Origin: Vulcanimicrobiota bacterium
Lineage (GTDB): Bacteria; Vulcanimicrobiota; Xenobia; Xenobiales; JADMJV01
Direction of reading: 5' to 3'
Assembly (NCBI GenBank): GCA_050250895.1
Contig: JBFWNU010000003.1
Coordinates: 427,302 to 491,301 of the forward strand
Length of the DNA stretch: 64,000 bases
In this document: positions 6,221 through 60,434 of the stretch, piece after piece
Layout: each line of letters opens with the position of its first letter
How positions within the stretch are numbered: the stretch's first letter is position 1
Program-made: the position numbers and the translations under genes
The notes under the pieces: model-generated
Databases searched by the model: none
What the model was told of the DNA's origin: nothing
The model's input: the letters and a program-made list of their open reading frames with translations, nothing else

Positions 6221-6223
6221 CGG

Positions 6224-6532: not shown

Positions 6533-6542
6533 AGGGTTCTCC

Positions 6543-7259: not shown

Positions 7260-7708
7260 AACTTCCTCCAAACCGGCACCTCGAGCGAGAGCACCTTGTT
7301 GTCTTGCGGCACCACCACGCCGGTCTGGCGGTCGCCGACGTTCTCGCGCCAGCTGATGGTGATGGTCAGCAGGTCTTCGTTGCCGTTGGTGTTGCCGATG
7401 AAGCTACCGTTGGCATAGTCGATGCGCTTGTGAAAGAGCATTTGTTGGGGGCGGCCGTCGACGATGACCTCGACCGGTTCATCCGACTCGCTGGTCCACC
7501 ACGTCGGGGCCGGCTCGCCGTACGGGTGAGCCTGGATTTCGTCGAAGAGGGTCTCGGCCATCAAGATGGCCACCGTTCGGTTGCGCGACTGCACCGCGTG
7601 GCGCGAGCCGCTCGAGAAGACCGAGAGGAAGGTCACCAGGGCGAGGACCGCCACCAGTAGAGCGATGATGCATTCGGCCAGGCTGAATCCTGACTTGGGG
7701 CGCCTCAT
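7256..7708 (-). CDS. Type IV minor pilin (PilV-like)
   Basis: MRRPKSG|FSLAE; C-terminal LTITISW; ATGA overlap. Confidence 0.82.
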   Translation of the reverse strand: MRRPKSGFSLAECIIALLVAVLALVTFLSVFSSGSRHAVQSRNRTVAILMAETLFDEIQAHPYGEPAPTWWTSESDEPVEVIVDGRPQQMLFHKRIDYANGSFIGNTNGNEDLLTITISWRENVGDRQTGVVVPQDNKVLSLEVPVWRKL

Positions 7709-36198: not shown

Positions 36199-36212
36199 TT
36201 GACACAGATCAA
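36199..36212 (+). promoter_or_regulatory. FNR/DNR box
   Basis: TTGACACAGATCAA; predicted +1 coincides with ATG 36247. Confidence 0.8.
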
Positions 36213-36246
36213 TGGCTCGGGTAGGCCTAAGAGCGACGATGCTCCT

Positions 36247-37407
36247 ATGGAACCGAAGGCCGGCCACCTTTTTTTTGCGCCCCATCGCGCTTTCATCGGT
36301 ACCTCTTTATGCCTGGCCGCTGGGGCCGGCACGCCTCTCGGGTTGTGGATGGCTCTGGTTTGGGCTGGGTGGGCCACGACCGACCGCTTCTCGTCGCTTT
36401 TGGCAGCTCACGGCCAACTTCAGGTTTATGGGTTTGTGTGCCTCTACACTATGGGAGTGGCCATGATGGTTCTGCCAGGCACACTCAAGGCGACCCTTCA
36501 ACCTCGATGGCTTGCGTTTGCCAGCCTGGTTCTGATGCTCACCGGCATTGCCGCGAATTCAGCCTCGCCCAACCTTCTGGGCGCCGCGCTCGAGTCCGGG
36601 TCGGTAATCGCCTATCTTTTCGTGCTCGGTCGAACTCGTCGGTCGGCCAAATCCACCGCCAGCACCGATACTTTGTCCCGCCAGCATGCCTTCTTCCTGG
36701 CCACGGGCTCGCTCTGGCTGTTGGCCTGCCCCTGGTTGGCTCTGCTGGATTCGACTCGAGCTCTTGAGACCGTGTTGTGGGGATTCGCGGGCCTTCACAT
36801 CGCCGGCATCGGCCTGAGGATCCACCCGTCTCTGCTAGGGATCAAAGGCATTCAAAAACAGTGGTTACTTCCATCCGCCGTCTGCTGGAATGTCGGCCTC
36901 CTGCTCTTCTGGCTGGGGCCTGAGGGCTTGTGGTCGTGGTTCTTGGCGCTGGGGGTCGGATGCTTTCTATGGGCCCTTCGCCCTTTTCGCCGACCGCGCA
37001 TCGGGCCTGGTGGTGGGGCCTGGGTGCGTTACTACATCCAAACTTCGTATCTCGGCCTCTTCCTGGCTGTCTGTTTCACTTGCGCCACCGCCAGTGGGTA
37101 TCCCACCCTGGCCGGAGCGGCACGCCATCTGCTGGCCACCGGGTTCGTGATCATGATGATGGTAGGGATGGGTCTGAGAATGATACCTGCCTACGAGACG
37201 CGACGCTTGCCTTGGCGCTCGGGGCCCTGGGCAATCTATTTTATCCTCGTCCTGGGGACGGCCGTCCGCGTGACCACCCAGGCCTTTTATTCCTTCACCT
37301 GGCTGGCCGTTGGGGCGGTCCTTCAGACGGTGGCCATCGTGCTCTTCGCCTGCCTGACCTTGGGAATGTATGCTTTTGGACAAACCGTGGTTTGCGAACA
37401 GGGTTGA
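36247..37407 (+). CDS. NnrS-like multi-pass membrane protein
   Basis: AHGQLQVYGF and RHLLATGF His motifs; many TM helices; own DNR box. Confidence 0.7.
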   Translation: MEPKAGHLFFAPHRAFIGTSLCLAAGAGTPLGLWMALVWAGWATTDRFSSLLAAHGQLQVYGFVCLYTMGVAMMVLPGTLKATLQPRWLAFASLVLMLTGIAANSASPNLLGAALESGSVIAYLFVLGRTRRSAKSTASTDTLSRQHAFFLATGSLWLLACPWLALLDSTRALETVLWGFAGLHIAGIGLRIHPSLLGIKGIQKQWLLPSAVCWNVGLLLFWLGPEGLWSWFLALGVGCFLWALRPFRRPRIGPGGGAWVRYYIQTSYLGLFLAVCFTCATASGYPTLAGAARHLLATGFVIMMMVGMGLRMIPAYETRRLPWRSGPWAIYFILVLGTAVRVTTQAFYSFTWLAVGAVLQTVAIVLFACLTLGMYAFGQTVVCEQG

Positions 37408-37417
37408 TTTATGTCAA
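37404..37417 (+). promoter_or_regulatory. FNR/DNR box
   Basis: TTGATTTATGTCAA; -10 TAGAAT at 37440-37445. Confidence 0.82.
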
Positions 37418-37496
37418 TGGGATCTCATCAGCAAGGCTCTAGAATCTGCCAGGAACCCGGGCCGAGCCTACAAAAGCAGGCTGAGAGGAGGCCGTG

Positions 37497-40064
37497 ATGG
37501 TCAAAAGATGGCTGTGTCTTTGTCTTGTACTTTGGACGACTGGCGCCGGGGCGGCCCCACTCTTTCCCGACGTTTCCGACGCCCATTGGGCCAGCGACGC
37601 GGTTGCCGCCCTGGCCTCCAAAGGTCTGGTGGAGGGCTATCCCGATGGCACCTTCAAGGGCGACCGGGCGGCCTCGCGCTGGGAGGTGGCCATGGTGGTT
37701 GCTCGTCTGCTCGCCAAGATGGAGCAGCAACATCAGACCTTCGCCAGCAAAGCCGAACTCGATCAGATCCGCCAACTGGCCCTGGCCTTGCGCGAAGAAC
37801 TCGACGCTCTCGGGGTGCGGGTGACCAATCTAGAGGAGAAGGTGGGCCGGCTCGATCGGCGGGTGAGCGAACTCGAGCGCATCACCTTCTATGGTTCGGT
37901 GGATGCGCGCTATGTCGGTCAAACCTTCAGCAACGCGGGCATCGGCGACAACGACGACCTGCGCAATGGAGGCGGCAACGCCTCGAACGTGCCCTTTCTC
38001 AACTATCACACCGTGGTGGGAACGGGGCTGGCGGCCACCCGCCGACCTCAGCTGCAGGGTCTGATTCCGGTGGTGGACTTCAAGCAGGGCAAAGCCCTGA
38101 CGAACGGCAGCAGCTTTACCATGCGGACCACCCTCGGCCTCAACCTCAGGGTCAGCGACGACCTCGACGCCGGCGCTGAATTCTCGGCCTTTGCCAGCCA
38201 GGGCGACACTTTCGTGGATGCCTACTGGGGCGTGTCGGCTCCCTGGCTTTCCAACCTGTTCACCGCCAACGCAACCGCCGGGGCCGGCACCCAACCCCTC
38301 AACCACGTACCCTACACCCGGATGAACCTGGACAAGTTCTGGGTTTATCACAAACCTTCCAAGACCCGACTTACCCTGGGAGAGATCGTGAAGTCTCGGA
38401 TGGACGCTCTGGTCTATGCCGGACAACCGAACCTGGGCGTCTACGGCCCCCGGCGCTGGGCCGGATATGGCTTCGACCTGCAAGGGCAGATCGACCTGAC
38501 CGAGCCAGACCGCCTCGAGTGGGAACTGTTGGGGACGCGCTTTGGCAATGGCAACACCTTTCTCGGCACCAACTACGAGAACTATGTGCTGGCCGGCAAT
38601 CTGGCCTATCATTTTCACCAGGACGCCGGCAAGATTCAGCTCAATTACGCTCGAGTGGCGGAAGAAGCGGCCGCCGGCAGCGCTCTGCTGGTGGGTCTGG
38701 GCGGAGCGGGAATGAACGTCGCTTACGGCGCCTCGCCCGGTTGGAGCATCCGCCAGTGGGTCAACCCGCCCGGCTACTTCGCCGGTCAGCGAAGCCTGTT
38801 CGAGCAACTCAATAGCGGGCAACTGGCGGGAGGCGTGCTGGTCCCGAACACGGTGGATCGCCGCCCCATTGCCGGCTGGAACGGGGCCGCCGACAACGCC
38901 ATCGGCCTGGCCAGCGGAGGTGGCAACTTTGGACCTCAATCCCAGGACACCTACGGCCTCACCGGTCGCTACCGCTGGGACTTCGGCGAGGCAGCCGAGG
39001 CGCCCAGCCTCACCGCCTTCGGCGAATGGGGCCACAGCCAGTATCGGCCCAACCGCAACTCACCCTACTCGGCCAGCGGCGATGGTCTGCGGGTGGGAGT
39101 GTCAGCCAATCTGCTGGACGACGCCCTCGAACTGGGACTCGAATACCTGTCCATCGACCCCGACTACAACCCCGCCGCCTGGCCCGGCACAGCTCTCGGG
39201 GCTCGTTTTCCCCGCACCATGAACTTCACCGGGGTCTGGCATCCCCACGACTTCGCCACCTATCCCCACAACCGAGAGGGCGTTCGTCTGGACGGCACCT
39301 GGAGGTTCGACCAGAAACGCGGCTCTCTGTGGGCCAAAGCCTCTTTCCTCGACCAGAAGCAGACCTCGCTCTATGATGTGCGGGTCTTGCCGGGCGGGGC
39401 TGGCAACGGTGCGCCGACCTTCGCGGTGCTCGGCTTCTCGCCAGGCTTCGTCGATCCCATCTTCTATGGCTATGCCCATCCCAATCTCTATGGAGCGGGT
39501 AGCGGCAACTCTTTCACCACCAACCTGCAGCCCCTGGAGGACCCTCGTGGCAGCGAGAACAGCTATTCTCTGGGAGCCTCCTACCACTGGACGGATCCCG
39601 GAGTCCGCTTGAGCGGTTCCTACGGATACAACGATTTCGTTCGGCGCACCTCGCTGTCACCCGGACTGGGGGGTGACCAGAATCACGTCGACATCGACGT
39701 CGATGTTTTCAACCTGGAAGCTCAATGGGACATCGACAAGCAGTGGAAACTCACGGGCGGACTGGATTACACCCGGTCGGCCGGCCATCTCGACCCGGGA
39801 GGCCTGTACCACTCCTACGCCGTGGCCACCAGCAGCAGCACCTTCGACAACCTCGACTCCACCCAGACCTCGCCCTACGTCAGTGTGGACTGGGCTATCA
39901 ACGACAAGAGCGACTGGAACCTCAGCCTGCGGCGCTACGACACCACGGACGGCATCGATCGCCAGGTGCGGGCGGGGACGGCGCTCGACGCCATCGGCGT
40001 GACCACCCATCCCTTCGAATGGGAAGGTTGGCAGGTGAGTTCAGAGTTTAGATTGCGCTTCTGA
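37497..40064 (+). CDS. SLH-domain outer-membrane beta-barrel (OmpM/porin-like)
   Basis: Signal peptide; FPDV..HWA..AV...GLVEGYPDGTFKGD SLH; coiled coil; C-terminal Phe; GAGGAGG RBS. Confidence 0.85.
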   Translation: MVKRWLCLCLVLWTTGAGAAPLFPDVSDAHWASDAVAALASKGLVEGYPDGTFKGDRAASRWEVAMVVARLLAKMEQQHQTFASKAELDQIRQLALALREELDALGVRVTNLEEKVGRLDRRVSELERITFYGSVDARYVGQTFSNAGIGDNDDLRNGGGNASNVPFLNYHTVVGTGLAATRRPQLQGLIPVVDFKQGKALTNGSSFTMRTTLGLNLRVSDDLDAGAEFSAFASQGDTFVDAYWGVSAPWLSNLFTANATAGAGTQPLNHVPYTRMNLDKFWVYHKPSKTRLTLGEIVKSRMDALVYAGQPNLGVYGPRRWAGYGFDLQGQIDLTEPDRLEWELLGTRFGNGNTFLGTNYENYVLAGNLAYHFHQDAGKIQLNYARVAEEAAAGSALLVGLGGAGMNVAYGASPGWSIRQWVNPPGYFAGQRSLFEQLNSGQLAGGVLVPNTVDRRPIAGWNGAADNAIGLASGGGNFGPQSQDTYGLTGRYRWDFGEAAEAPSLTAFGEWGHSQYRPNRNSPYSASGDGLRVGVSANLLDDALELGLEYLSIDPDYNPAAWPGTALGARFPRTMNFTGVWHPHDFATYPHNREGVRLDGTWRFDQKRGSLWAKASFLDQKQTSLYDVRVLPGGAGNGAPTFAVLGFSPGFVDPIFYGYAHPNLYGAGSGNSFTTNLQPLEDPRGSENSYSLGASYHWTDPGVRLSGSYGYNDFVRRTSLSPGLGGDQNHVDIDVDVFNLEAQWDIDKQWKLTGGLDYTRSAGHLDPGGLYHSYAVATSSSTFDNLDSTQTSPYVSVDWAINDKSDWNLSLRRYDTTDGIDRQVRAGTALDAIGVTTHPFEWEGWQVSSEFRLRF

Positions 40065-41608
40065 TGGCTTCTCGTTCTCCGTTGGCCGCCCAGCTCGAGC
40101 GGCTGATGCGACCGCTCGATTGGCTCTTCAATCGGGTCTACACGTCTCGATGGAATCCTCTCTACCAAAGTGGAGCGCTGGCCCTATTTCTGGTCCTGCT
40201 CACCCTGGTGAGTGGGATCTACCTAATCTTTTGTTACAGCATCTCGGCTCCCTATGAATCGGTTTCCTCCATTCATCAGGCCTACCCTGGTGTCTGGATC
40301 CGCTCCCTGCATCGCTATGCCTCGGATCTCGCCGTGGTGGCAATAGTGTTCCACATCCTCAAGATGCTGACCACGGATCGTACTTGGGGACCGCGAATGA
40401 GAGCCTGGATGTCGGGCTGGGTCGTTTTTGGCGCCATGCTCGTCTGTGGCTGGACCGGTTTGGCCCTGATTTGGGATGAACAGGCTCAGCTACTGGTCCT
40501 GGAAGTGGTCCGCCTGCTCGATTGCCTCCCCTTCTTCCCCGAGCCTCTGGCGCGGCTTCTGGTTGGACCCGAGATGCCTCGGGGCTTCTTTTTCAGCCTC
40601 CTCTTTCTTCATGTAGCCGCCCCACTGGGATTGGGCGGTCTCTATCTTCTTCACGTCTCGTCGGTGGCCAGGCCTACTCACCAGCCACCCAGGCCGATTA
40701 GACTCTACACGTTTGCCTTGCTGGCAGTACTGGCTGCGCTCGTACCCGCTCCGCTCGGGCCTGCGGCCGACCTCTCGAAGCTCCCTGGTCGAGTCCCGGT
40801 CGACTTCTTCTACTCCGGCTGGCTGATCGTCAGCCCCTGGTTGACAGGCTGGGCGATGTGGGCGGCTTTGCTGCTGACCGCTCTGTTGGCCTTGAGTGTC
40901 CCCTGGTGGTGGAGACCCACTGGGGAGCCTCCCCAGGCCAGCTGGGTGGATTGGGAGAGCTGCACGGGATGCACTACCTGTTATTTGGATTGTCCTTACG
41001 AGGCGATCTCGATGGTCGAACGGACGGGTCCAACGGCGGATGAGCGTCACTCGAAGTACGTCGCCCTGGTGAACGCGGATGCTTGCGTCAGCTGCGGCAT
41101 CTGTTCTGGCTCGTGCGCCCCGATGGGGGTCGGCCCGCCCGACCGGACGGGTAAAGCCCAATTGCTCCATGTGAAGGGCTGGTTCGACGAGCATCGGCCC
41201 ATTGGCAAACTGGTGGTGGTGGCCTGCACCAAGTCGCCAACCCCTAGCCAGGGGGTTCTCTTCCCGGTTAGCTGTGCTGGGGCTGTCCACACTTCTGTTT
41301 TGGAGTATCTTCTTAAAAGAGGAGCCCTCGGGGTCTATCTACTTAGCTGCCCCCAGCGCGATTGCTGGAACCGTGAAGGTCCTCGTTGGGCCCATGAACG
41401 GATCTACAATCAGCGCGAGGCCGAACTGCAGGCCAGGGTAGATCGGCGGCGCATCGCCACCGGCGCCTTTGCCTTTACCGAGGCGAGACCGGCCCGGGCG
41501 GCCATCGATGCGTTCGCCGCTAGCCTCGCTCCGTTCGAGCGACCGCTCGCGACCGAGGAAGTGGCCATGCCCACGCCAGAATGCGAGGAGAAGCAGATCG
41601 ATGGCTAG
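40064..41608 (+). CDS. Cytochrome b N-terminal + 2x[4Fe-4S] + MvhD/FlpD-like fusion protein
   Basis: Two His pairs 14 residues apart (RSLH..FH, FLH..LH); CTGCTTCYLDCP; CVSCGICSGSC; VAC..SCAG..CPQRDCWNREG. Confidence 0.85.
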   Translation: MASRSPLAAQLERLMRPLDWLFNRVYTSRWNPLYQSGALALFLVLLTLVSGIYLIFCYSISAPYESVSSIHQAYPGVWIRSLHRYASDLAVVAIVFHILKMLTTDRTWGPRMRAWMSGWVVFGAMLVCGWTGLALIWDEQAQLLVLEVVRLLDCLPFFPEPLARLLVGPEMPRGFFFSLLFLHVAAPLGLGGLYLLHVSSVARPTHQPPRPIRLYTFALLAVLAALVPAPLGPAADLSKLPGRVPVDFFYSGWLIVSPWLTGWAMWAALLLTALLALSVPWWWRPTGEPPQASWVDWESCTGCTTCYLDCPYEAISMVERTGPTADERHSKYVALVNADACVSCGICSGSCAPMGVGPPDRTGKAQLLHVKGWFDEHRPIGKLVVVACTKSPTPSQGVLFPVSCAGAVHTSVLEYLLKRGALGVYLLSCPQRDCWNREGPRWAHERIYNQREAELQARVDRRRIATGAFAFTEARPARAAIDAFAASLAPFERPLATEEVAMPTPECEEKQIDG

Positions 41609-42128
41609 GTTGATACTCCGTGGTTTGTTTGGTTTGGTCTGCCTTCTCGGGCTGGCCCAATTGTCTGCCTGCCCTGCGGGCAAGCAGACCGACAGGGGCA
41701 TCTTAAGGCTGAGCTGGCGACTCACGGGCGCCCGGATCGAGAGAATGCTCACGCCAGAGGAGTTAGAGAAGCTTCCCCCACACATGCGGCCCCGTGATGG
41801 CGTGGCCGAAACCACCGAGTTGCCCTATCGGCTCAGCATCGCCATCGATACTCGGCGTGACTCGTTTCGAGTCACGCCCGCAGGCTGGCGGGGCGACCGC
41901 CCGCTCTTCGTGCTACGCGACTACCCGTTGGCTCCCGGTCACCACCAGGTTGTGGTCGAATTCGGGCCAGAAGACACGGAAGTCGAGGCCACCCGCTACA
42001 GCTTCGCTCAGAGCATTGAATCTAGAGCCGGTCAGATCCTTACGGTCAGGCTCTCTCCCGAACAAGATCAGCTAATTCTCACAGCCGCTCCAGAGCCTGA
42101 ACGATCCAAGCGGTCGGCGGATCGGTGA
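41601..42128 (+). CDS. Hypothetical membrane-anchored exported protein
   Basis: ATG 41601 with GAGGAG upstream; LRLSWR and LEKLPPHMR motifs. Confidence 0.65.
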   Translation: MARLILRGLFGLVCLLGLAQLSACPAGKQTDRGILRLSWRLTGARIERMLTPEELEKLPPHMRPRDGVAETTELPYRLSIAIDTRRDSFRVTPAGWRGDRPLFVLRDYPLAPGHHQVVVEFGPEDTEVEATRYSFAQSIESRAGQILTVRLSPEQDQLILTAAPEPERSKRSADR

Positions 42129-42963
42129 AGGAATAGGCCAGCCGCCCCCGAGAGTCCAGCACAAAGATCATGCCTGGATGATTCACGTCGCCGTTTTGGG
42201 GATTGCGGGAGATCGGTAGTTTGTAGGCCTCGATGACCCGAAGGACATCCTCTACGGGTCCTGAGAGAACGTGGTCTTTGGGTCCGAGCCTGAAGGTTTG
42301 CGCTAGTCCGGGCAAGGCACCCGGAGTGTCACGCCAGGGGTCTAAGGTGACCACGACCAGGGCCGGCCGAGACCGGGTGTCTGCCAGGGCGTGATCCAGC
42401 GTTGCCAGCAAACGTGGGCAGACGCTTTGACAGTGGGCAAAGGCGAAGGTCAAGATGACCTTTTGGCCGAGCAGCATCTGGTTGGTCACCGTCTGCCCGT
42501 GTTGGTCCACCAGAACGAACGGGGGGGCTGCCTGGGTTCCACGGGGATAGTCCCGGGGGAGTTCGCTGTCCTCGAGGTTGGCGGAGAAGATTGAGGCGGA
42601 GTCTCTAGTGACGGTCACGACCCGTTGGACACCCCAGAGCAAGAGCCAGGCGGGAAGGATGGTCAGCGCCACCAGGACGCCACGCCCGGGGGCACTGGCC
42701 TTGAGGCGACGGAAATCGGCAATCAGCTCCTGCGGCCACAAGAATACCAGGGCGGTCAGCATCAGCAGAGGGCTGCCGACCAGGGTCAACCAGCCGTAGC
42801 CTTCTGGCAAACCGTTGGGCAGGCTGCCAAAGCAGGTCGACCGCGCCGCCTGAATCCATTCCGGTGTCGTCTCGGGCAAGGGGGCCAGGGCGAACCACCA
42901 CCACCACAGCCCGACGACCAACCAGGCCATCAAGAGGTGGCCTGCTAGCGACAGTCGCCTCAA
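42079..42963 (-). CDS. SCO-family copper chaperone with N-terminal TM region
   Basis: FAHCQSVCP, TLDPWRDTP, VNHPG. Confidence 0.88.
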   Translation of the reverse strand: MRRLSLAGHLLMAWLVVGLWWWWFALAPLPETTPEWIQAARSTCFGSLPNGLPEGYGWLTLVGSPLLMLTALVFLWPQELIADFRRLKASAPGRGVLVALTILPAWLLLWGVQRVVTVTRDSASIFSANLEDSELPRDYPRGTQAAPPFVLVDQHGQTVTNQMLLGQKVILTFAFAHCQSVCPRLLATLDHALADTRSRPALVVVTLDPWRDTPGALPGLAQTFRLGPKDHVLSGPVEDVLRVIEAYKLPISRNPQNGDVNHPGMIFVLDSRGRLAYSFTDPPTAWIVQALERL

Positions 42964-42964
42964 A

Positions 42965-44683
42965 TCAACCCACCTTCCATAACAACGAGAGCAGCTTCCA
43001 GTTGGTGAAGTAGTAAAGTACGAACGCGCCCAAGAATACGAACACCAGCACCATGGTCCCTGGACAGCCCTGATCGTGAACCGCCTGCAACTCGTCCTGG
43101 CTGTAATCGCAGATGCGTTTGGGTGGATTGGCCACCCCCTGGGGCACGCCGGTCAACGCCGGACCGAACTCTTCAGGGCGAATCTTCTTGCCGAAAAAGA
43201 CCGAGATCACGGCCACGACGATAAAGCAGAGGGCACCGGTGGCGGCCAATAAACCGCCGATGCCCAGGCCGGCCAGGAACAGGTCCACGATGGCCGGATA
43301 CTGTAGAGAGAAGTCGGCTTTGGTGAACGAGATATCGTAGTGCCGGCGGGGCACGCCAAAGATGCCGCTAAAGATCATGCTCATTCCCATCATGGAAATG
43401 CCACCGCCAAAGAGGTAGGGTTGGATTTTGGCCAGGGGCCAGAGGGCTACACGCTTGCGGAAGATCAGTGGCAGCAAGTAGTAGGTGACTCCCATGAAGG
43501 CCAGAGCCGTGCCACCGGCCACGGTCACATGGAAGTGGCCAGGAACCCTCAGTGTATTGTGGGCCGTGATGTTGATTTGCTCGGTCCCGAGGGTCACACC
43601 AGTGATGCCTCCTAAGAATCCGAAGATCACCAGGGATAGGAACATCGCCGAGAAGCCAGGATCTCCCCACGGGGCCTTGATGAGCCACTCGAATCTGCCT
43701 TTCACGTAGCCGCGCAAGCGCTGCCCGGCTTCGATACCTGCGGGCACCGTAAAGCCGTGGACCATGCTGGCCAGAACGGCCAGATACATGGCGTAACTGG
43801 TGTTCCACACCTTCCAGGCCGGGCCCATGCCGGGATCCACCAACAGATGGTGGGCGGATGCCATAGAGATGAAAAGGACGTAAAGAAAGAAGGCGCCGCG
43901 GCTGACTTTCTGGTTGAGAACCACTCCTCCGACCGAGAGAGCGGCCAGGAGATACCAAATGGACACATGAGCAGCTACGTTAATCTGTTGTGAAGAATGC
44001 CCCAGGCCCCACCAAACCATGCGATAGATTTGCGGGTCGACCTCCATCAATCCGAGAGACCAGAGGAAGGTCGGGATGTAGATCAAAGCACCATGAAGCA
44101 AAGTGATTACCGCGATCACAGCGGCCGTGAGGGCCCCATAGGTTACCAGGGGGATGGCACCATCTCCATAGGTCTTTTCGCGCTTTGCCACGACCAGGGC
44201 GGCAAAGAAGAGACTCACCACCACCAGAGCGCCCACAGCGAACAGGATGATGCCCAGGTAAAAGGCCGGATGGGCTTTTAAGGGCACATAGGAAGTAAAG
44301 AGTACATCTGCTTTGCCGGCAAAAATGACGCTGTCGGTCATGAGTGCGCCACCAAGCATCAGGGCATAGGACGCCCAGGCCAATCTGGGAGCCGGCACCC
44401 GGCAACCAAGCAATACCGGACCGGCGAAGTAGAGTACGGCCATTTCGAAGAATAGGATGAAAAAGATCAGCATGTTCAGGCCGTGGAGGGTCAGCACCCG
44501 ATAATACCATTCAGCCGACAGCAGGTGGACCGCTTGCCAACGCGTCAGCGCCAGTCCGATTGCGGCGAGCACTCCCACCAGGAAGAAGACCACGGCAGTC
44601 ACGGCGTTGACCTTGATCAGCCACTCGGCATCCCGATGAATTCGGGCCCCGGTGACGGGACAGATGCGAAAAAGCTCGGTCAT
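42965..44683 (-). CDS. Heme-copper oxidoreductase subunit I, eNOR-type nitric oxide reductase
   Basis: Metal-ligand His motifs TLHG, GHSSQQIN, AHH, GHFH; Gln in place of the cross-linked Tyr of the GHPxVY motif. Confidence 0.85.
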   Translation of the reverse strand: MTELFRICPVTGARIHRDAEWLIKVNAVTAVVFFLVGVLAAIGLALTRWQAVHLLSAEWYYRVLTLHGLNMLIFFILFFEMAVLYFAGPVLLGCRVPAPRLAWASYALMLGGALMTDSVIFAGKADVLFTSYVPLKAHPAFYLGIILFAVGALVVVSLFFAALVVAKREKTYGDGAIPLVTYGALTAAVIAVITLLHGALIYIPTFLWSLGLMEVDPQIYRMVWWGLGHSSQQINVAAHVSIWYLLAALSVGGVVLNQKVSRGAFFLYVLFISMASAHHLLVDPGMGPAWKVWNTSYAMYLAVLASMVHGFTVPAGIEAGQRLRGYVKGRFEWLIKAPWGDPGFSAMFLSLVIFGFLGGITGVTLGTEQINITAHNTLRVPGHFHVTVAGGTALAFMGVTYYLLPLIFRKRVALWPLAKIQPYLFGGGISMMGMSMIFSGIFGVPRRHYDISFTKADFSLQYPAIVDLFLAGLGIGGLLAATGALCFIVVAVISVFFGKKIRPEEFGPALTGVPQGVANPPKRICDYSQDELQAVHDQGCPGTMVLVFVFLGAFVLYYFTNWKLLSLLWKVG

Positions 44684-45219
44684 GGCGTGTCCTCCACGAT
44701 GATCTTACCGACCATCTGGTGATGGCCGATTCCGCAATATTCGTTGCATACGATAAAGAACTCACCAGCCTCGTTAGGGGTGATGCGCAGACCATAGTCG
44801 TAGCCAGGCACGACCTGGAAGTTCAGGTTGATGGGCATCAGACTGAAACCGTGGTTGACGTCAGCCGAGGAGAGATGCAGGGTGTAGGTCACCCCTTTCT
44901 CGAGCTTGAGGATAGGTGACCAGCGCCACATTTGACCCAAGAGATAGATGTCCGCGCCCGGCGGTGGGGCCACGATATGATAACCCTTTTCCTTGCCGAT
45001 AGAGTATTCTTTTTCGAATCGGCTGACGCGAGCCCGGAATTCCTTCTTGTCGACCTTACGCCGAATACCAGACGGGTTCTGCCCTCCCTTGAGATGCCAA
45101 AGCGGCATCATTGCAAAGAGGACGAGACACCATATAAAGGCAACCGTTACCCAGAGCTTCTCCTGGGGACCTACCGGCTGCCACCAATTACCCTCAACGG
45201 GAGCAATGGGCGAGTCCAT
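44680..45219 (-). CDS. Heme-copper oxidoreductase subunit II (CuA)
   Basis: DVNHGF and CNEYCGIGHHQM; one TM helix. Confidence 0.92.
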   Translation of the reverse strand: MDSPIAPVEGNWWQPVGPQEKLWVTVAFIWCLVLFAMMPLWHLKGGQNPSGIRRKVDKKEFRARVSRFEKEYSIGKEKGYHIVAPPPGADIYLLGQMWRWSPILKLEKGVTYTLHLSSADVNHGFSLMPINLNFQVVPGYDYGLRITPNEAGEFFIVCNEYCGIGHHQMVGKIIVEDTP

Positions 45220-45231
45220 ATCAGTCTCTTT

Positions 45232-45381
45232 CTAGGGTAGTTCCGCCGGGGGCAGGCTCCACACCTCGATGGCCCCCCAAACGGTGTAGAACAAAAACAT
45301 GACAAAAAGGCCAGCAGCCAGTAAGAAGAATGGGTTATCCATCAAGCGTTGCGCCAACGGGGCTTTCGAATCATCGTTCAT
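45232..45381 (-). CDS. Small single-TM subunit (IIa-like), missing from the ORF track
   Basis: MNDDSKAPLAQRLMDNPFFLLAAGLFVMFLFYTVWGAIEVWSLPPAELP (49 aa); GGGAGG RBS. Confidence 0.8.
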   Translation of the reverse strand: MNDDSKAPLAQRLMDNPFFLLAAGLFVMFLFYTVWGAIEVWSLPPAELP

Positions 45382-45436
45382 GACGAGCCTCCCGACTAGA
45401 TATGTCCCACTCTAGAAGGCTCGCACGATGTCAACA

Positions 45437-45450
45437 TTGATCCATGTCAA
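45437..45450 (-). promoter_or_regulatory. FNR/DNR box of the eNOR operon
   Basis: TTGATCCATGTCAA; -10 TAGAGT at 45414-45409. Confidence 0.82.
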
Positions 45451-45899: not shown

Positions 45900-46874
45900 T
45901 CAGCTTCGCTCCAACTGAGCGCAAGCCTGCCCCCCGAGCTGAGAATAGAAATCAGCCCGAGCCGATTGCCAGTCGCGACAATCGCGGCATACCACTGGCA
46001 GTTCGTCCCAGCGGGCCTCGCGGTGTTTCCGGCGAAAGTCCGCCAACGGCCCATTCCAGATCTCGGCCAGAGTCGAGGTGTTAGCGTCGCCAGCCACAAA
46101 CCTGGCGTCGAGATCCACGGCACAGGCCACCACCTGGCCTCGATCGGTAACCGACAAACTTTGCATGGCCCAGTAGCAGGGCCAACGCTCCTCCTGGCCC
46201 AGAACCAGATTCGAAGCCTCCACTTTGCCCGCCCAGCTGACTTTAGGCCGGATCTTGACCTGTGCTCCATGGCTGGTCCAAAAGTCGATAAAGAGCTGTG
46301 TCTCCTGGCTATTCTCTTCCATTTCAACGAACTGAACATAGACTTGAAGAGGTGAGGCCTTCTGATCGCGCAGGCGCAGAAGATGCTTCACATTCTTGAC
46401 CACTTTGGTGTAGTCTCCTCCAACTCGGATTTTCTCGTAGGTCTCTGGCAAGAAGGCGTCGATGCCGATATAGATGGCGTCGAGTTTTGAACCGATTAGC
46501 GCGTCGGCAGCAGCCTCGTCAAGAAGGTTGGCGTTCGAGTTGAGGACTACGTCGGTGAGCCCACGCTCCTTTGCGTAACGGATCCGGTGGAAGATCCCGT
46601 CGGGTTGGCGCCGGGTAATCAGGGCTTCGCCAAAAAACACCATCCAAACCCTGATGCCCGGGTCGGTGGCGGCGATCTCGTCAATGATCTTGACGAAAAG
46701 CTCCTCGGCCATGTAGCCTCGGGGCCGGGCCATTTGAGAATGGAAACACATCGAGCACTTGAGATTACAGAAACTCACGGTATCGATGAGCACCACTCGA
46801 GGAAATCCCCCCGCCGATTCATCCAGTCGGCCCTGTTTGCGTTGTTGAAGATATACTGCAGACTCTCGAGTCAT
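45900..46874 (-). CDS. Radical SAM/SPASM(twitch) protein
   Basis: CNLKCSMC; C-terminal PC...GQVVAC...CRDC; AAGGAG RBS before ATG 46874. Confidence 0.88.
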   Translation of the reverse strand: MTRESAVYLQQRKQGRLDESAGGFPRVVLIDTVSFCNLKCSMCFHSQMARPRGYMAEELFVKIIDEIAATDPGIRVWMVFFGEALITRRQPDGIFHRIRYAKERGLTDVVLNSNANLLDEAAADALIGSKLDAIYIGIDAFLPETYEKIRVGGDYTKVVKNVKHLLRLRDQKASPLQVYVQFVEMEENSQETQLFIDFWTSHGAQVKIRPKVSWAGKVEASNLVLGQEERWPCYWAMQSLSVTDRGQVVACAVDLDARFVAGDANTSTLAEIWNGPLADFRRKHREARWDELPVVCRDCRDWQSARADFYSQLGGQACAQLERS

Positions 46875-46930
46875 AGCGGTTGCTCCTTGGGTAGATCCTC
46901 CGATTTTGAGCCGTGGTTCGAGCGGGCACA

Positions 46931-46979
46931 TTGATGTGGATCAACACCGACCTCCTCGACTGCGGTTGATCCACATCAA
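46931..46979. promoter_or_regulatory. Two consensus FNR/DNR boxes serving divergent promoters
   Basis: TTGATGTGGATCAA (46931-46944) and TTGATCCACATCAA (46966-46979); -10 CAAAAT on minus and TAGAAT at 47002-47007. Confidence 0.88.
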
Positions 46980-50868: not shown

Positions 50869-52095
50869 CTAGTTGCTCCTGGTCGTCTCGGGCATTTCAG
50901 TGCGCAAACGCCGAGCGAGTGCCTCGGGGAAAGGGAAGCTGCCGGGCCGATAGGCGCAGTAAGGGTCCTCGTCGTGGGGGTCGCCGCTAAAAGCGAAGGC
51001 ACGCGAACGAGAACCCGCACATAGTCGTTTAAACTCGCAGGCACCACAGCGGCCCTTCAGGCGGTCGGGATCGCGGAGTTCGTGAAAGAGGGGAGCGCTT
51101 CGATAGATGTCAGCCAGGGGTTGCCGGCGCACGTTGCCGGCCGACAGGGGTAGAAACCCGCTGGGAAAGACGTCTCCTCGATGAGAGATGAACACAAACC
51201 CGTTGGCCGCGTTGATGTGCATGGGAGTCCTCTGGAGTTCCACTCGCGAAGACAGCCCCCGGGTCTTGACGATTACTTCCAGTCGAGAGTGCAGGCGTCG
51301 ATAGAGAGGGTGCAGCCCCTCAGAAGCGTCCTTCCCGTGTTCCTCAAAGATGGCCCTCTGTACTAGTACCCTTTTGAAGTGATGACCCTCGGTCGTCTTG
51401 ACGCTCAGGTAGCGCCCGCAGTCCGCCAGGAAGTGCATCACGGCCTCGCATCACGGCCTCGCATTCATCGGGCCTGAGATCCTGTTCGGCTCGGCCGCGG
51501 CCGGTGGGCACCAGGAAGAAGACGCTCCAGGTCATGGCGCCCAATTCCTTGACAAGCGCGAAGAGGTCGAATAGATCATCAAGGTTGTGGCGCGTCACCG
51601 TGCTGTTGATCTGAACCCTCAGTCCCACTTGCCGAGCCGCTCTCCATCCCTCGAGGGTGAGTTGGAACGAGCCCGACACCCACGGAATGCGTCGTGGGAG
51701 TCGGCCGTCGAACCGTCGAGGCTGAGAGAAACGGCCTTTGCGCCAGCCTGGTGAATCAACTTTAGATTGGTTTGGTTCAGCAGGGGAGTGCCCGACGGAG
51801 AGACGGCCGCCGCTAGGCCGAGCTTTGAAGCATAGCCCACCAGGTCGGTGAGATCCGACCGCTTGAACGGATCCCCGCCCGTAAAAACGACGATCGGTGA
51901 AGGTTTGCCAAAGTCGAGAATTTGCTTCAGAAGACGATGCCCCTCCTGGTTGGTCAAGGCCAGAGGGTCGTGGTTCGGCCGGGCACTAGCTCGGCAATGC
52001 CCACAGACCAGGTCGCAGGCTTGGGTTACCTCCCAGATGATCATGAAGGGCCGCTCCTGGCGAGCTGCTCGAGGATGACGAATTAGCTTTCTCAC
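50869..52095 (-). pseudogene. AhbD/NirJ-like radical SAM/SPASM gene broken by two frameshifts
   Basis: WEVTQACDLVCGHCRA, FFLVPTGRG and KGRCGACEF lie in three separate ORFs; 13-bp tandem duplication at 51435-51460; apparent lost G near 51680. Confidence 0.85.
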
Positions 52096-52129
52096 CCGAG
52101 CAGCATGACAGGGCCAGGACGATCCGCCA

Positions 52130-52143
52130 TTGACCTGGGTCAA
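52130..52143 (-). promoter_or_regulatory. FNR/DNR box
   Basis: TTGACCTGGGTCAA; -10 CATGCT at 52107-52102; +1 equals GTG 52095. Confidence 0.8.
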
Positions 52144-54615: not shown

Positions 54616-55266
54616 ATGTTAGAGAAGCTCCTGGGACCTCGTGTCCCCAGCCGGGAGATGGCCCGGCACCGGGCCCGCTACCTGCTGCCGACGCTTCTCC
54701 TGTTGCTGGCCAGCGGGATGCTGCTGGGCTCTACCCGGCTGCCGTACTGGCGAATGGAATTGCAAGCCCCGCAGTATCCTGGCGGCCTGGCCGTGACCGT
54801 GTTCGTCGACCACACCGAAGGCGACGTCAAGGAGATCGACGGCCTCAACCACTACATCGGTATGCGTCCTCTCGACGAGGCGGCCCGTCTCGAGCGAGAG
54901 CTAGGGCTAGAGGCCATCATGGCCATGGCGCTGCTGGTCTTGCTGGCGACCTTACTGCACAACCGACTGGCCGTGCTGATGACCGTCCCCGGGCTGCTGT
55001 TTCCGGCCATCTTCCTGGCCGACCTTGGCTGGTGGCTGTGGTACTTCGGTACCCACCTCGACCCGCACGCTCCACTGAGCAGTTCTATCAAGCCGTTCGT
55101 GCCCCCGGTGCTGGGGGCAGGCAAAGTGGGACAGTTTCAGACGGTGGCCACTCCCGAGACGGGCCTGTGGCTGGCCATGCTCGCCTCGCTGGTGATGGTG
55201 ACCGGACTCTACTTTCACTGGCGGGCCTACCGGCCGCTCTGTCGACGACAGGAGAACCCAGCATGA
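54616..55266 (+). CDS. Clade II nos membrane protein (NosB-like)
   Basis: LPYW...APQYP..L, EIDGLNHYIGM, LDPHAPL; directly after nosZ. Confidence 0.8.
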   Translation: MLEKLLGPRVPSREMARHRARYLLPTLLLLLASGMLLGSTRLPYWRMELQAPQYPGGLAVTVFVDHTEGDVKEIDGLNHYIGMRPLDEAARLERELGLEAIMAMALLVLLATLLHNRLAVLMTVPGLLFPAIFLADLGWWLWYFGTHLDPHAPLSSSIKPFVPPVLGAGKVGQFQTVATPETGLWLAMLASLVMVTGLYFHWRAYRPLCRRQENPA

Positions 55267-57533
55267 GAACGACCTTGCTACTCATCTTACTAGCTCTTCC
55301 GGTCTGGCCCTCGCCGGTCGTGGTGGTCAACCCGTCCGACGATCTGGCGGCCGCCCTGGCCGGGGCTCCTCCGGGAGCCCGGGTCGAGGTTCGCGGAGGA
55401 ATTCACCCTGGCAACTTTCGCCTCGACCGTCCGGTGAGGCTGGTTGGTCTGGACCGGCCGGTGCTCGACGGGCAGGGGCATGGTACGGTGGTGCGGGTCA
55501 CGGCCTCCGACGTTACGGTGACAGGCTTCGTGGTGCGCGGCAGTGGCGACTCGCTGGATGCCGAGAATTCCGGCATCGCGGTCGAAGCGCCTCGGGCCAC
55601 CATTGAGGATAACCGACTCGAGGACACTCTTTTTGGAGTCTACTTACGCAAGGCTCCGGCCAGCCTGATTCGAGCCAATCGCATCACCAGCAAAGACCTG
55701 CCTTTGCCGCGCCGGGGGGATCCCATCCGCATCTGGTATAGCAACCGGGTACGGGTCGAAGACAACCTGGTCGAGCGCGGACGCGATGTGGTGTTGTGGT
55801 ATTCCGAGCATCTCGACGTGCATCGCAATTCGGTCAAGGACGGCCGCTACGGCCTGCACTTTATGTATTGCGACGACGCCCGGGTCGAGAGCAACATTCT
55901 GCGCAACAATTCGGTGGGAGCCTTCATGATGTATAGCCGCCGGGTCCAATTGCGCCGCAACCGGATCACTGGCAATCGCGGTCCCAGCGGCTACGGGGTA
56001 GGCCTCAAGGACATGGACGACGCGGTGTTAGAGGGCAATCTGCTGGCGGATAATCGCATCGGTGCTTCCCTCGATAACTCGCCTCGCGAAATCCGCAGTA
56101 CCGCCCTCTTTCGTCGCAACCTGTTTGCCTATAACGATGTCGGCGTCAAGCTGCTGCCCTCGGCTCGTCGCACCATGTATACCGAGAACAGCTTCCTCGA
56201 CAACCAGGAGCAAGTGCGTGTCGACGGTGGCGGCCGGCTTGAAGACAATTGCTGGGCTGTCGGCGGGCGCGGCAACTATTGGAGTGACTATCACGGCTTC
56301 GACCGCGACGGGGACGGTCTGGGTGATCTGCCCTATCGTTCCGAGAGGCTGTTCGAAGACCTGACTACAGCCCACCCCAGCTTGCGCCTGTTTCTGATGA
56401 GTCCGGCCAGCCAGGCCATCGATTTCGCGGCCAAAGCCTTTCCGGTGGTCAAGCCGGTCCCTAAACTGGCCGACGCCAGCCCGATGATGGAGCCGGTCTG
56501 GCCCGAGGTGCCGTCGGCGCAAGCCCAAGCGCCCGAGCGACTGGCTCTGGCCGGAGCCGGCCTGTTACTCAGCGGGCTGCTGCTCTCGGGCCTGGGGCGG
56601 CTCAACTTCAAGTTCTCGGTCGTCAGTGACGCGACGGCCCCGCGGGTCCGCCAGATGGTGGCGATGCGAGGGGTCACCATGCGGTTTGGCCCTACCCGCG
56701 TGCTGGACGAACTGACACTTTCCCTCGAGAGCGGGGCGTCGCTGGCCCTGTGGGGCATGAATGGCGCCGGCAAGACTACGGCCATCCGCTGTCTGCTCGG
56801 GCTCTACCGCTTCGGTGGCGAGATCGTGGTGGACGGCATCGAGGTCGCCCGGGACGGCCGCCTGGCTCGCGAACGTATCGGCTTCGTGCCTCAGGAGATC
56901 TCGTTCCACGATGATCTTTCGGTCACCGAGACGCTCGACTTCTACAGCTTGCTCAGACGAGCTCCTGAAGAACGCTCCGAAGCCTTGCTGCGGCGGGTGG
57001 GCCTGGGGGACCACCGCGACAAGTTGGTGCAGCACCTCTCGGGCGGTCTCAAACAGCGGTTGGCTCTGGCCGTGGCGCTCCTGTCGGACCCGCCTTTGCT
57101 GGTGCTCGACGAGCCTACGGCCAACCTGGACAGTGTGGCTCGCGAGGGGTTTCTCGAGTTGCTGCTCGAGTTCAAAGCGGCCGGCAAGACCCTGTTGTTC
57201 ACCTCGCATCGGCCCGAAGAGATCCAGACCCTGGCCGACCGAGTGGTGGTGCTCGAGGCGGGTCGAGTGCGAGCCGATGGTAGCCCCCGAGAAGTGGCCT
57301 ATCAGCTCGGCTGGGCCGTGGCTGTCAGGTTTCGCCTCGATGACCCAGAATCGGCTGCCCGTGTGCTCGAACAGGCCGGCTACAGGGTCTGCCCCGCGCG
57401 CCAGAGTCTGGTGGTCGAGGTGCCCTATCACGATAAGGCTCGCCTCTTGCAGCACCTGTATCAGGCCGGCCTGAGCTTTGGCGACTTCGAGCTCACTCCA
57501 CTGCTAGGAAGGAATCGCGACAATGTTCTTTGA
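55263..57533 (+). CDS. nosD: NosD-NosF fusion (beta-helix + TM helix + ABC ATPase)
   Basis: RYGLHFMY, GNYWSDY (NosD); TM helix; GMNGAGKT, LSGG, LVLDEPT (ABC); one continuous frame from ATG 55263. Confidence 0.88.
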   Translation: MRTTLLLILLALPVWPSPVVVVNPSDDLAAALAGAPPGARVEVRGGIHPGNFRLDRPVRLVGLDRPVLDGQGHGTVVRVTASDVTVTGFVVRGSGDSLDAENSGIAVEAPRATIEDNRLEDTLFGVYLRKAPASLIRANRITSKDLPLPRRGDPIRIWYSNRVRVEDNLVERGRDVVLWYSEHLDVHRNSVKDGRYGLHFMYCDDARVESNILRNNSVGAFMMYSRRVQLRRNRITGNRGPSGYGVGLKDMDDAVLEGNLLADNRIGASLDNSPREIRSTALFRRNLFAYNDVGVKLLPSARRTMYTENSFLDNQEQVRVDGGGRLEDNCWAVGGRGNYWSDYHGFDRDGDGLGDLPYRSERLFEDLTTAHPSLRLFLMSPASQAIDFAAKAFPVVKPVPKLADASPMMEPVWPEVPSAQAQAPERLALAGAGLLLSGLLLSGLGRLNFKFSVVSDATAPRVRQMVAMRGVTMRFGPTRVLDELTLSLESGASLALWGMNGAGKTTAIRCLLGLYRFGGEIVVDGIEVARDGRLARERIGFVPQEISFHDDLSVTETLDFYSLLRRAPEERSEALLRRVGLGDHRDKLVQHLSGGLKQRLALAVALLSDPPLLVLDEPTANLDSVAREGFLELLLEFKAAGKTLLFTSHRPEEIQTLADRVVVLEAGRVRADGSPREVAYQLGWAVAVRFRLDDPESAARVLEQAGYRVCPARQSLVVEVPYHDKARLLQHLYQAGLSFGDFELTPLLGRNRDNVL

Positions 57534-59744: not shown

Positions 59745-60434
59745 ATGGAAGGACCCTCCATGGCGAATTTCGACGAGCTCAGGGACTTCCCGTTCTTTAG
59801 CGGCCTCGGTCGCGACGAACTGACCCACGTGCTGCCGGCCGTGCACCGTCGGCAGGTCGCCGCGGGCACTTTCCTGTTCCAGGCCGGTGACCCCCCGGTG
59901 GGGTTCTATCTGGTGGTCTCGGGCCGGGTGAAGGTGTTTCGCGAGTCGGCCGACGGGCAAGAGCAAGCTCTGGGCTTCTTCGGTCCAGGCGAGTCGTTTG
60001 CCGAGGCTGCCCTTTTTCAAGAGGGCTATCCAGCCTCGGCCATTACCCTCGACGACTCGGAACTGTTCCTGGTGCAGCGTGATACTTTTATCCGCCAACT
60101 AGGCGACAATCCCAGCCTGGCGCTGCGGGTGATCGTGACGCTATCGACCAAGCAGCGTCGACTGGTGCGGCTGCTCGAGGATCTCACCCTGCGCGACGCC
60201 CGGGGCCGCTTCTGTCACTATCTGGCCCAACTCCTCGACGACCATCCCCAGGCACCCGTCACGGTAGCCCTGCCCGTGGCCCAGGTCACCCTGGCCAGGC
60301 TGCTGGGCGTCACCGAAGAGACGCTCTCGCGCACCATCCGCAGTCTGCGCAAGGACGGCATCCTGGGAGCGGCCGAGAAGGGCCAGTTCGTGGTCGAAAA
60401 CGTCGAACAGCTGAAGAAGGCCTACTCGATCTGA
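59745..60434 (+). CDS. Crp/Fnr regulator, DNR/NnrR-like
   Basis: cNMP-like domain (GESFAE); recognition helix EETLSR; no N-terminal Cys cluster. Confidence 0.9.
   Translation: MEGPSMANFDELRDFPFFSGLGRDELTHVLPAVHRRQVAAGTFLFQAGDPPVGFYLVVSGRVKVFRESADGQEQALGFFGPGESFAEAALFQEGYPASAITLDDSELFLVQRDTFIRQLGDNPSLALRVIVTLSTKQRRLVRLLEDLTLRDARGRFCHYLAQLLDDHPQAPVTVALPVAQVTLARLLGVTEETLSRTIRSLRKDGILGAAEKGQFVVENVEQLKKAYSI

Follow-up and report, generated by a model that had tools for sequence, protein, structure and literature searches.

Nitric oxide (NO) reductases of the eNOR type are diagnosed by a Gln in the position of the Tyr that is cross-linked in O2 reductases (PMC8756737, section 2.7.1). The eNOR of R. 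marinus is active as an NO reductase but not as an O2 reductase, and haem As together with NO-only reduction are established just for that enzyme (passages of PMC11214002). The same passages present eNOR-type enzymes as being as widespread as the classical NO reductases and hence as a major source of N2O; neither they nor the corresponding passages of PMC8756737 describe an eNOR electron donor or assembly pathway. The closest described gene arrangement is the eNOR operon of Ferrigenium straubiae, in which a cytochrome b/[Fe-S] protein is found with eNOR II, eNOR I, haem o synthase, sco1 and a protein of unknown function (passages of bioRxiv 10.64898/2026.01.22.701106). Here we analyse a stretch of 64,000 nucleotides (nt) from a Vulcanimicrobiota bacterium (contig JBFWNU010000003.1, positions 427,302 to 491,301; hereafter the window), in which an eNOR cluster faces an operon for an SLH porin, a fusion of cytochrome b, a 2x[4Fe-4S] ferredoxin and an MvhD-like domain (the fusion), and a small exported β-sandwich protein (the exported partner). 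The fusion and the exported partner, referred to below as the pair, form a constant companion to a single eNOR subclade, that with the motif GH[SAC]SQQIN, and the link is to eNOR and not to NosZ.

The domains joined in the fusion are met separately in other systems. MvhD/FlpD domains are normally partnered with heterodisulfide reductase (Hdr) or hydrogenase, and QmoB carries an MvhD-like domain. In NarI–NarH, HdrE–HdrD and QmoC, a membrane di-haem cytochrome b is wired to cytoplasmic Fe-S clusters; that cytochrome b is of the NarI-like family, whereas the domain in the window is PF00033. CcoG (FixG) belongs to a Cu pathway together with a SenC/SCO homologue. It is a cupric reductase and assembly factor of the cbb3 oxidase, a membrane protein that carries two [4Fe-4S] clusters plus an Ig-like domain on the periplasmic side (passages of PMC7558416). 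Table A3 of PMC8756737, a table about another domain and, as far as that part of the paper goes, without comment on eNOR, contains one Chloroflexi accession with cytochrome b6, DMSOR-β-like and FlpD domains. The literature searched, which took in passages of the two eNOR papers apart from the supplementary eNOR neighbourhoods of PMC11214002, gives no characterised function or description of the partner. A preliminary description of the window had called the redox module uncharacterised, and for that literature this stands. The pairing has not gone wholly unnoticed: the Ferrigenium preprint reports cytochrome b/[Fe-S] genes in an eNOR operon. The preprint, in the passages used, finds these genes "rather unusual" and possible markers of the genus; here the pair is general to an eNOR subclade and occurs in at least three phyla and on an alphaproteobacterial plasmid. 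We take the Ferrigenium protein as an orthologue of the fusion on the strength of its description rather than of a sequence comparison. According to the preprint, one Ferrigenium paralogue has FAD and NADH domains, which the fusion of the window lacks.

The features of the locus, numbered from the first nucleotide of the window, are as follows.

37404-37417, before the porin operon: DNR/FNR-type box TTGATTTATGTCAA, with its centre about 86 nt 5′ of the porin start codon
37497-40064, + strand: SLH-domain outer-membrane porin, 855 residues, with a signal peptide, first gene of the second operon (PF00395, E 2.2e-11)
40064-41608, + strand: fusion protein, 514 residues (PF00033, E 8e-13; Fer4 families; PF02662 FlpD, E 1e-9)
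40064-40918, + strand: membrane part of the fusion, residues 1-285, a six-helix di-haem cytochrome b of the bc1/b6 type with helices A-F (PF00033)
40931-41608, + strand: C-terminal arm of the fusion, residues 290-514, a 2x[4Fe-4S] ferredoxin and an MvhD/FlpD-like domain (Fer4 families, PF02662)
41601-42128, + strand: exported partner, 175 residues, a predicted membrane-anchored periplasmic β-sandwich (alignment of 30 homologues, AF2 model)
42079-42963, − strand: SCO1/SenC-type copper chaperone with an N-terminal membrane region, last gene of the eNOR operon (PF02630, E 1.7e-22)
42965-44683, − strand: eNOR subunit I, 572 residues, motif GHSSQQIN (PF00115, E 3e-63)
44680-45219, − strand: eNOR subunit II, 179 residues, a cupredoxin (PF00116; CuA motif CNEYCGIGHHQM)
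45232-45381, − strand: eNOR small subunit, 49 residues, a single helix, first gene of the operon (read from the sequence)
45437-45450, before the eNOR operon: DNR/FNR-type box TTGATCCATGTCAA, with its centre about 62 nt 5′ of the small-subunit start codon
59745-60434, + strand: Crp/FNR-family, DNR-like regulator (PF00027, PF13545)

The listing of open reading frames (ORFs) and the Pfam and NCBIfam scans place every component named in the preliminary description where that description had put it, and its picture of two operons that converge and that each have a box of their own is borne out. The + strand operon runs porin, fusion, exported partner. Each stop overlaps the next start, by 1 nt between porin and fusion (TGATG) and by 8 nt between fusion and exported gene (ATGGCTAG); the three genes thus form one operon. 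The − strand operon runs small subunit, subunit II, subunit I, SCO, and the 3′ ends of the exported-protein and SCO genes overlap by about 50 nt (42079-42128). A box of the pattern TTGAT-N4-GTCAA lies ahead of each operon. When up to one mismatch is tolerated, the window contains 10 copies, whereas shuffled sequence has a mean of 0.63 and reached 10 in none of 100 shuffles; further copies precede NirK, one radical SAM gene and two NnrS-like genes. The regulator at 59745-60434 is a candidate reader of the boxes, to which it may bind, and the eNOR cluster of the window is probably DNR-controlled. In other loci, exact matches to the box upstream of the cluster are few, being found, at the expected place, only in L010 and L094.

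The window is a NirK–eNOR–NosZ denitrification island. It also encodes a NirK–cytochrome c, a NirV-like protein, a second SCO, a Sec-type NosZ, NosDF, NosY, a cytochrome c and NnrS. The Pfam scan of 60 window ORFs, which did not include every small ORF, found no heterodisulfide reductase or hydrogenase, in line with what the preliminary description had said of the usual MvhD/FlpD partners.

Subunit I has its closest solved relatives in the ba3 chains of T. thermophilus (E about 1e-47). In the alignment, GHSSQQ of the window lies over GHPIVY of ba3, so that the second Gln falls on Tyr237, the cross-linked Tyr of the O2 reductases. The His ligands of the haems and the active-site metal are retained, since LTLHG, GH(233), SAHHLL and PGHFHV all align with ba3 motifs. 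Over the whole set of aligned sequences, the active-site column holds Y in 10 B-family sequences and one A-family sequence, and Q in 57. Subunit II has the CuA-type cupredoxin expected of an eNOR, as judged from PF00116 and the motif CNEYCGIGHHQM; its match to TIGR02866 CoxB is below the cut-off. Homologues of the small subunit take the same position, and SCO comes after subunit I, in the relatives of the window's genome and in most of the metagenome loci, by which we mean the best 80 of 467 confirmed loci found with an alignment of the fusion.

A tree of subunit I agrees with this assignment. It was a quick IQ-TREE run (LG+G4) on 68 sequences: 57 of the Gln type (window, relatives, metagenome loci, three plasmid records), 10 B-family sequences of the Tyr type that the window's own phylum supplied, and one A-family sequence from the window's genome, the other two A-family genes having been lost at the length/completeness filter. 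The 57 Gln-type rows, none of which is a biochemically characterised eNOR, are set off from all other rows by a branch with SH-aLRT 100; the 10 B-family rows stand apart with support 99. Grouping with the B-family O2 reductases, which would have told against the preliminary description, is therefore not what the tree gives, and its assignment of subunit I to eNOR is upheld by both the alignment with Tyr237 and the tree. A PF00115 scan of the genome returned three A-type enzymes and subunit I of the window, with no cNOR/qNOR-like sequence among the matches; subunit I is thus the only candidate haem-copper NO reductase found there. We have little doubt that the cluster encodes an eNOR-type NO reductase of the GH[SAC]SQQIN subclade, whose two usual companions have been shifted to a second, convergent operon with a DNR box and an SLH porin paralogue at its head.

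The fusion was analysed with an alignment of 20 family members that are 44-58% identical. Invariant among them are four haem-ligand His (His83, His97, His183 and His197), the eight Cys of two [4Fe-4S] sites, and Cys388, Cys404, Cys429 and Cys434 of the FlpD domain, which probably carries a [2Fe-2S] cluster. The AF2 model (pLDDT 75) has six long membrane helices. Foldseek matches the membrane part to whole bc1 cytochromes b across 280-350 columns, PDB sequence matches reach b6 at E 7e-11, and hhalign against a bc-type cytochrome b of the same phylum gives a probability of 98%, with fusion residues 34-289 aligned to 31-315. As in the cytochromes b of bc1 and b6f, the four haem His are in helices B and D, and the alignment spans helices A-F including the ef loop. 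There are also differences: the fusion ends after helix F and is continued by an Fe-S arm, and there is no Rieske protein or cytochrome c1/f in the cluster genes or the window ORFs scanned, nor, as judged by tblastn with the window proteins only, one that recurs beside the fusion in the loci of relatives. At the place of the PEWY motif of the Qo site, the aligned ef loop reads D-F-F-Y in the window, against P-A-W-Y in one bc-type cytochrome b; the Asp is Asn in some family members, and helices G-H lie beyond the end of the protein. Residues 193-290 taken alone gave chance matches only in a phmmer search of the PDB.

The C-terminal arm has the same order as the C-terminus of HdrA/HdrA2 with MvhD, namely 2x[4Fe-4S] followed by a four-Cys MvhD-like domain. 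NCBIfam HdrA2 matches residues 290-488 at 569-768 of 777, covering the C-terminal ferredoxin and MvhD part (E 1.7e-10, below the cut-off), and Foldseek matches the last domain to the MvhD chain 5odc_D over 132 columns with an rmsd of 3.6. In the window this module is tethered to a membrane cytochrome b. The window ORFs scanned include no Hdr or [NiFe] hydrogenase to partner it, the search for HdrA and HdrB not having extended to the whole genome. The fusion holds the genome's single copy of the FlpD domain. PF00374, the [NiFe] hydrogenase family, gives two weak partial matches in the genome, both in one 453-residue frame that is presumably NuoD-like. The topology of cytochrome b homologues and the Arg/Lys-rich loops (positive-inside rule) suggest that the N-terminus, loops B-C and D-E and the entire Fe-S arm of the fusion are cytoplasmic.

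In L097 (G305, Acidobacteriota), the fusion lies inside an open frame of up to 1019 residues (5374-8433, − strand), in which about 360 unassigned residues precede cytochrome b and about 185 more follow FlpD. The frame is directly 3′ of eNOR I, and a separate SCO gene is absent there.

The exported partner begins with a hydrophobic membrane helix or a lipobox (LSAC). The AF2 model (pLDDT 91.7) consists of one membrane helix and a β-sandwich. Six residues are invariant in 30 homologues (Arg36, His61, Met62, Gly95, Arg100 and Gly113), at a mean column identity of about 31%, and a Cys pair, absent from the window protein, flanks the His-Met loop in most of them. Neither the window protein nor the 30 homologues match a Pfam family; a profile search collected 1309 members at E ≤ 0.001 among 1.84 billion cluster representatives. 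Comparison by fold gave only generic sandwiches (Foldseek best E 1.6e-3) and no assignment to a family. By VIA the best Z was 6.7, for AlgF-C, and many unrelated rows lay within 1 Z of it. Two single-chain forms, P0103 (722 residues) and P0263 (748 residues), join cytochrome b, Fer4, FlpD, an extra membrane helix and the β-sandwich, and therefore support a physical link between the members of the pair and the predicted inside-to-outside topology.

The co-occurrence of the fusion with eNOR, which the preliminary description had singled out for checking across genomes, is very tight. The relatives sample consists of 41 genomes, namely G000 and the 40 closest to it. The fusion occurs in 11 of them and a match to eNOR I in 12, the twelfth (G018) being only a 300-residue remnant. 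The order small subunit, II, I, SCO, fusion, exported partner on one strand is kept by 10 of the 10 fusion-bearing relatives. In the window's phylum (301 genomes, counted with the unpublished genome G247), the 11 genomes with a full-length fusion are identical to the 11 with an intact eNOR I, and the fusion is found in none of the 120 genomes that hold only a B-family homologue (about 30% identity). Four of 251 Acidobacteriota genomes have eNOR I, and in all four, the ones that the fusion search covered, the fusion is on the same contig within about 1 kilobase (kb). Of 251 Gemmatimonadota genomes, 59 have eNOR I and 58 the fusion, all 58 being among the 59; in 56 of these 58, the two genes share a contig and diverge, with 0.9-1.5 kb between them. 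The two samples that were fully cross-tabulated, the window's phylum and Gemmatimonadota, contain no case of the fusion without eNOR. These are plain counts with no statistical test, since kin are not independent.

The metagenome loci give the same picture. At least one eNOR gene is present in 63 of the 80 and an exported homologue in 59, and all 47 readable motifs are GH[SA]SQQIN. Nearly all of the 17 loci without eNOR are truncated: 15 have less than 810 nt of upstream flank and two end at a SCO gene; L053 has no eNOR despite 3.0 kb upstream and 2.1 kb downstream. The arrangement varies: 52 loci are divergent, five co-directional, four tandem and two convergent as in the window. On a Defluviimonas plasmid the genes run small subunit, II, I, CyoE, SCO, fusion, exported partner, hemerythrin. 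In the tree, a clade of 55 rows (support 96) consists wholly of sequences with the fusion, and the fusion-less Gln-type sequences branch outside it; most of these rows were found through the fusion, so that this direction of the association holds by construction, whereas the genome samples are free of that bias.

The same counts bear on a proposal of the preliminary description, that the fusion might supply NosZ, and on the wider reading that it serves denitrification generally, in place of NosR or NosGH. The window does have a Sec-type (clade II) NosZ with NosDF and NosY, and the ORFs scanned contain no NosR-, NapH- or NosB-like gene, just as that description had noted for nosR and nosGH. Nevertheless, NosZ is present in only one of the 80 metagenome loci (NosDF in two) and in two of the 10 loci of relatives, in the window's order the fusion is present exactly where eNOR is intact, and no genome in the samples searched has the fusion and NosZ with eNOR missing. 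A service to NosZ is accordingly very improbable.

Some Gln-type clusters lack the fusion. The 47%-identical GHGTQQIN enzyme of the Gemmatimonadota genome G743 has no SCO, fusion or CtaA within 9 kb. On Thermus thermophilus plasmids and on the Thermomicrobium roseum megaplasmid, Gln-type GHGAQQVN enzymes are encoded with neither SCO nor the pair, and in T. roseum a CtaA-CtaB fusion adjoins the enzyme. The clusters of Thermus, Thermomicrobium and G743 all have CuA subunits. These enzymes form a second Gln-type subclade, GHG[AT]QQ[IV]N, without SCO or the pair, which comprises L096 (T. thermophilus plasmid, 7989-9671), L095 and L111. In the Thermus enzyme, a Lys replaces one low-spin haem His (VGHFKATV; His or Lys stands at that place), a replacement that is mentioned for some eNORs (passages of PMC11214002).

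What does the pair do for eNOR? The sequences show which genes are present, that the cofactor ligands are conserved, that the pair occurs strictly with this eNOR subclade and that its two members are fused in nature; the topology, cluster types, direction of electron flow and role of the pair are all matters that we infer. The two haems and three clusters could form an electron wire through the membrane, joining the quinone pool, a cytoplasmic partner or both to the periplasmic face, where the β-sandwich would be sited. Along this wire the b haems might supply electrons from quinol or from the cytoplasm, which could reduce Cu(II) (or Fe(III)) or hold the SCO/CuA route in the reduced state for the assembly or maintenance of the metal centres of eNOR. 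His and Met are typical Cu(I) ligands, and the invariant His-Met of the exported partner could hold Cu(I). We tentatively prefer such a CcoG-like role of a trans-membrane wire in assembly or maintenance, with a slight lean over turnover electron supply, while giving it rather less than an even chance. The lean comes from this His-Met and from four further considerations. In co-directional clusters, the pair comes after the assembly genes CtaB/CyoE and SCO (CtaB/CyoE is present in seven fusion-bearing loci); SCO is likewise missing from the three Gln-type clusters that have no fusion; in the window, the pair shares an operon with the porin; and CcoG provides a precedent. The pair and CcoG have in common a membrane protein with 2x[4Fe-4S], a periplasmic domain of the sandwich type, and a gene beside that of a haem-copper enzyme. 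However, CcoG is without b haems and MvhD-like domain, and as no sequence relationship was detected, the likeness is one of architecture only.

Several observations weigh against an assembly role. The CcoG/FixG family is not among the Pfam matches or the 22 NCBIfam matches of the fusion, nor among those of the β-sandwich (30 homologues, E ≤ 5). A single His-Met pair falls short of a complete metal site. A wire with five cofactors and a retained bc1-like ef-loop region is closer in appearance to a respiratory module than to a chaperone, and MvhD-type domains are known as inter-protein electron connectors, not metal reductases. In the divergent arrangement, the commonest one (52 of the 80 loci), the pair has its own promoter region and is parted from SCO, which remains next to the structural genes. 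Only three fusion-less clusters underlie the co-variation with SCO. The Ferrigenium proteins were detected in the proteome of denitrifying cells (passages of bioRxiv 10.64898/2026.01.22.701106).

It is thus also possible, and we give this some less credence than an assembly role, that the pair is the dedicated electron input of eNOR during turnover. Quinol, oxidised at the Qo-like pocket, or a cytoplasmic reductant would pass electrons to the b haems and on to the periplasm and the CuA of subunit II, a supply comparable to that by NosR, NosGH or NapGH for other N-oxide reductases. The strict one-to-one co-occurrence and the adjacency are the pattern of dedicated donor modules, and helices A-F of cytochrome b and the ef-loop region are kept. 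NapH- and NosR-type proteins likewise carry cytoplasmic [4Fe-4S] clusters, which counts in favour of a supply role. That PMC11214002 and PMC8756737 describe no physiological donor, in the passages at hand, leaves a place for such a module, and contigs from wastewater RNA libraries cover the 3′ part of the fusion, the exported gene and the eNOR genes, which is weak support because DNA can occur in such libraries. On the other hand, the 30-homologue alignment and Pfam give no haem c, cupredoxin or Rieske motif in the periplasmic partner. The Fe-S/MvhD arm is predicted to be cytoplasmic, while eNOR accepts electrons at the periplasmic CuA, and the arm would be superfluous for transfer from quinol to CuA. 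The clusters of Thermus, Thermomicrobium and G743 have CuA subunits and manage with no such module, and the purified two-subunit eNOR of R. marinus is active with tetramethyl-p-phenylenediamine (TMPD)/ascorbate (passages of PMC11214002).

The architecture, which resembles a bc1-type cytochrome b with no Qi-side return path and ends in an HdrA-C-terminal/MvhD-type connector, allows a further proposal. After oxidation of quinol at a Qo-like site, one electron would go to the strongly oxidising eNOR branch and the other inward, over the b haems and clusters, to a low-potential cytoplasmic acceptor, NAD(P)+ or ferredoxin, docking on the MvhD-like domain. For the Ferrigenium paralogue with FAD and NADH domains, NO-reduction-coupled NAD+ reduction is in fact proposed (passages of bioRxiv 10.64898/2026.01.22.701106). 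Yet the cluster has no Rieske protein or other first acceptor and no conserved cytoplasmic partner, the PEWY place reads D-F-F-Y with Asn for Asp in some members, and fusion homologues of 901-2570 residues were not found at E ≤ 1e-20, which is weak evidence. Moreover, most hosts appear to be heterotrophs, which would have no evident need of reverse electron flow. Such bifurcation, or a redox loop of this kind, is in our estimate unlikely. The stronger form of the proposal, that the pair and eNOR make up a Rieske-less quinol-oxidising supercomplex that carries out NO-driven bifurcation, in which the very high potential of NO reduction would draw off one quinol electron and the second would be driven inward over the b haems and the three clusters, we likewise regard as improbable; if true, it would be a new energy-conserving or reductant-making route in denitrification. 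After these readings and a service to NosZ, what probability remains is left for something else.

Returning to a role in assembly, we also considered the fusion as an O2-independent substitute for CtaA, that is, as a haem a synthase. The idea came from the seven fusion-bearing loci in which CtaB/CyoE is present and the CtaA part absent, and from the CtaA-CtaB fusion of T. roseum, which lacks the pair. However, this is the only fusion-less cluster that shows CtaA, the window's genome has its own CtaA elsewhere, and a cytochrome b fold has no hydroxylating site. The idea was rejected as an explanation in itself and is kept as a long shot within the assembly reading.

Whichever role is right, the pair tracks one large eNOR subclade across phyla and hence gives a handle on how eNOR is fed and built. 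It also provides a rule for annotation. Its genes are currently labelled "hydrogenase iron-sulfur subunit", "cytochrome b N-terminal domain-containing protein" or "hypothetical", and they mark eNOR clusters, which are themselves mislabelled as cytochrome oxidases.

The porin is a local matter. The preliminary description had made it part of the pairing, a view that the comparison does not sustain: a porin homologue (49%) adjoins eNOR in one relative only, L008, and in none of the 80 metagenome loci. At least four further full-length copies of the porin family, with 40-56% identity, are present in the genome. The NCBIfam model por_somb matches only the N-terminal 100 residues, below the cut-off. 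We read the SLH porin as a DNR-controlled paralogue that was recruited locally and stands outside the conserved module. Since relatives keep small subunit, II, I, SCO, fusion and exported partner on one strand, the split into two convergent operons with boxes is, by gene order, best seen as a rearrangement of an ancestral single operon.

Contigs 95-99% alike to the window occur in four wastewater RNA libraries from two studies. They come from close relatives and not from the same strain, and they attest presence in the library, not proven transcription. They cover 41354-41818 (where the fusion ends and the partner begins), 41666-42295 (one contig that spans the convergent junction), 42033-45389 (from SCO through the small subunit) and NirK. 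At 95% likeness there is no cover for most of the porin gene or for the initial 1.3 kb of the fusion gene, from which we conclude nothing, and pieces at about 37245 and 38728 continue into unlike sequence. Up to half of the sampled words are contained in DNA runs with the labels activated sludge, wastewater or bioreactor sludge, which does not amount to a firm statement on habitat.

Other genes of the island deserve mention. Just upstream of the porin operon are a cytochrome P450 gene (35037-36185) and a divergent gene for an NnrS-like membrane protein (36199-37407; PF05940 at only E 1e-6), with a DNR-type box between them at 36199-36212. These two genes recur beside eNOR in the relatives L007, L009 and L012, and by the eNOR remnant in L100; a P450 of the DNR regulon could act on NO or a nitro compound. 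On the NosZ side, NosD and the ABC ATPase NosF are in one 833-residue ORF (55032-57533; PF05048 and PF00005), and NosZ itself is Sec-dependent and of the clade II type. Upstream of nosZ, a radical SAM/SPASM gene (50869-52143, − strand) is broken into three ORFs in different frames (51619-52143, 51344-51679 and 50869-51441). Both of its ends match, at 42-43% identity, an intact TIGR04053-family gene beside NirK on a Thermus plasmid, and the split probably reflects a frameshifted pseudogene or an error of assembly. Another radical SAM/SPASM gene, intact, lies between eNOR and NirK (45900-46931) and is preceded by two perfect TTGAT-N4-ATCAA boxes (46931 and 46966). The segment 47037-49875 encodes NirK with a fused C-terminal cytochrome c, then a NirV-like protein of the FGE-sulfatase family and the second SCO, and this NirK–NirV-like–SCO trio recurs near the eNOR cluster in L008, L009, L011, L073 and L085, which are loci of relatives and metagenomes.

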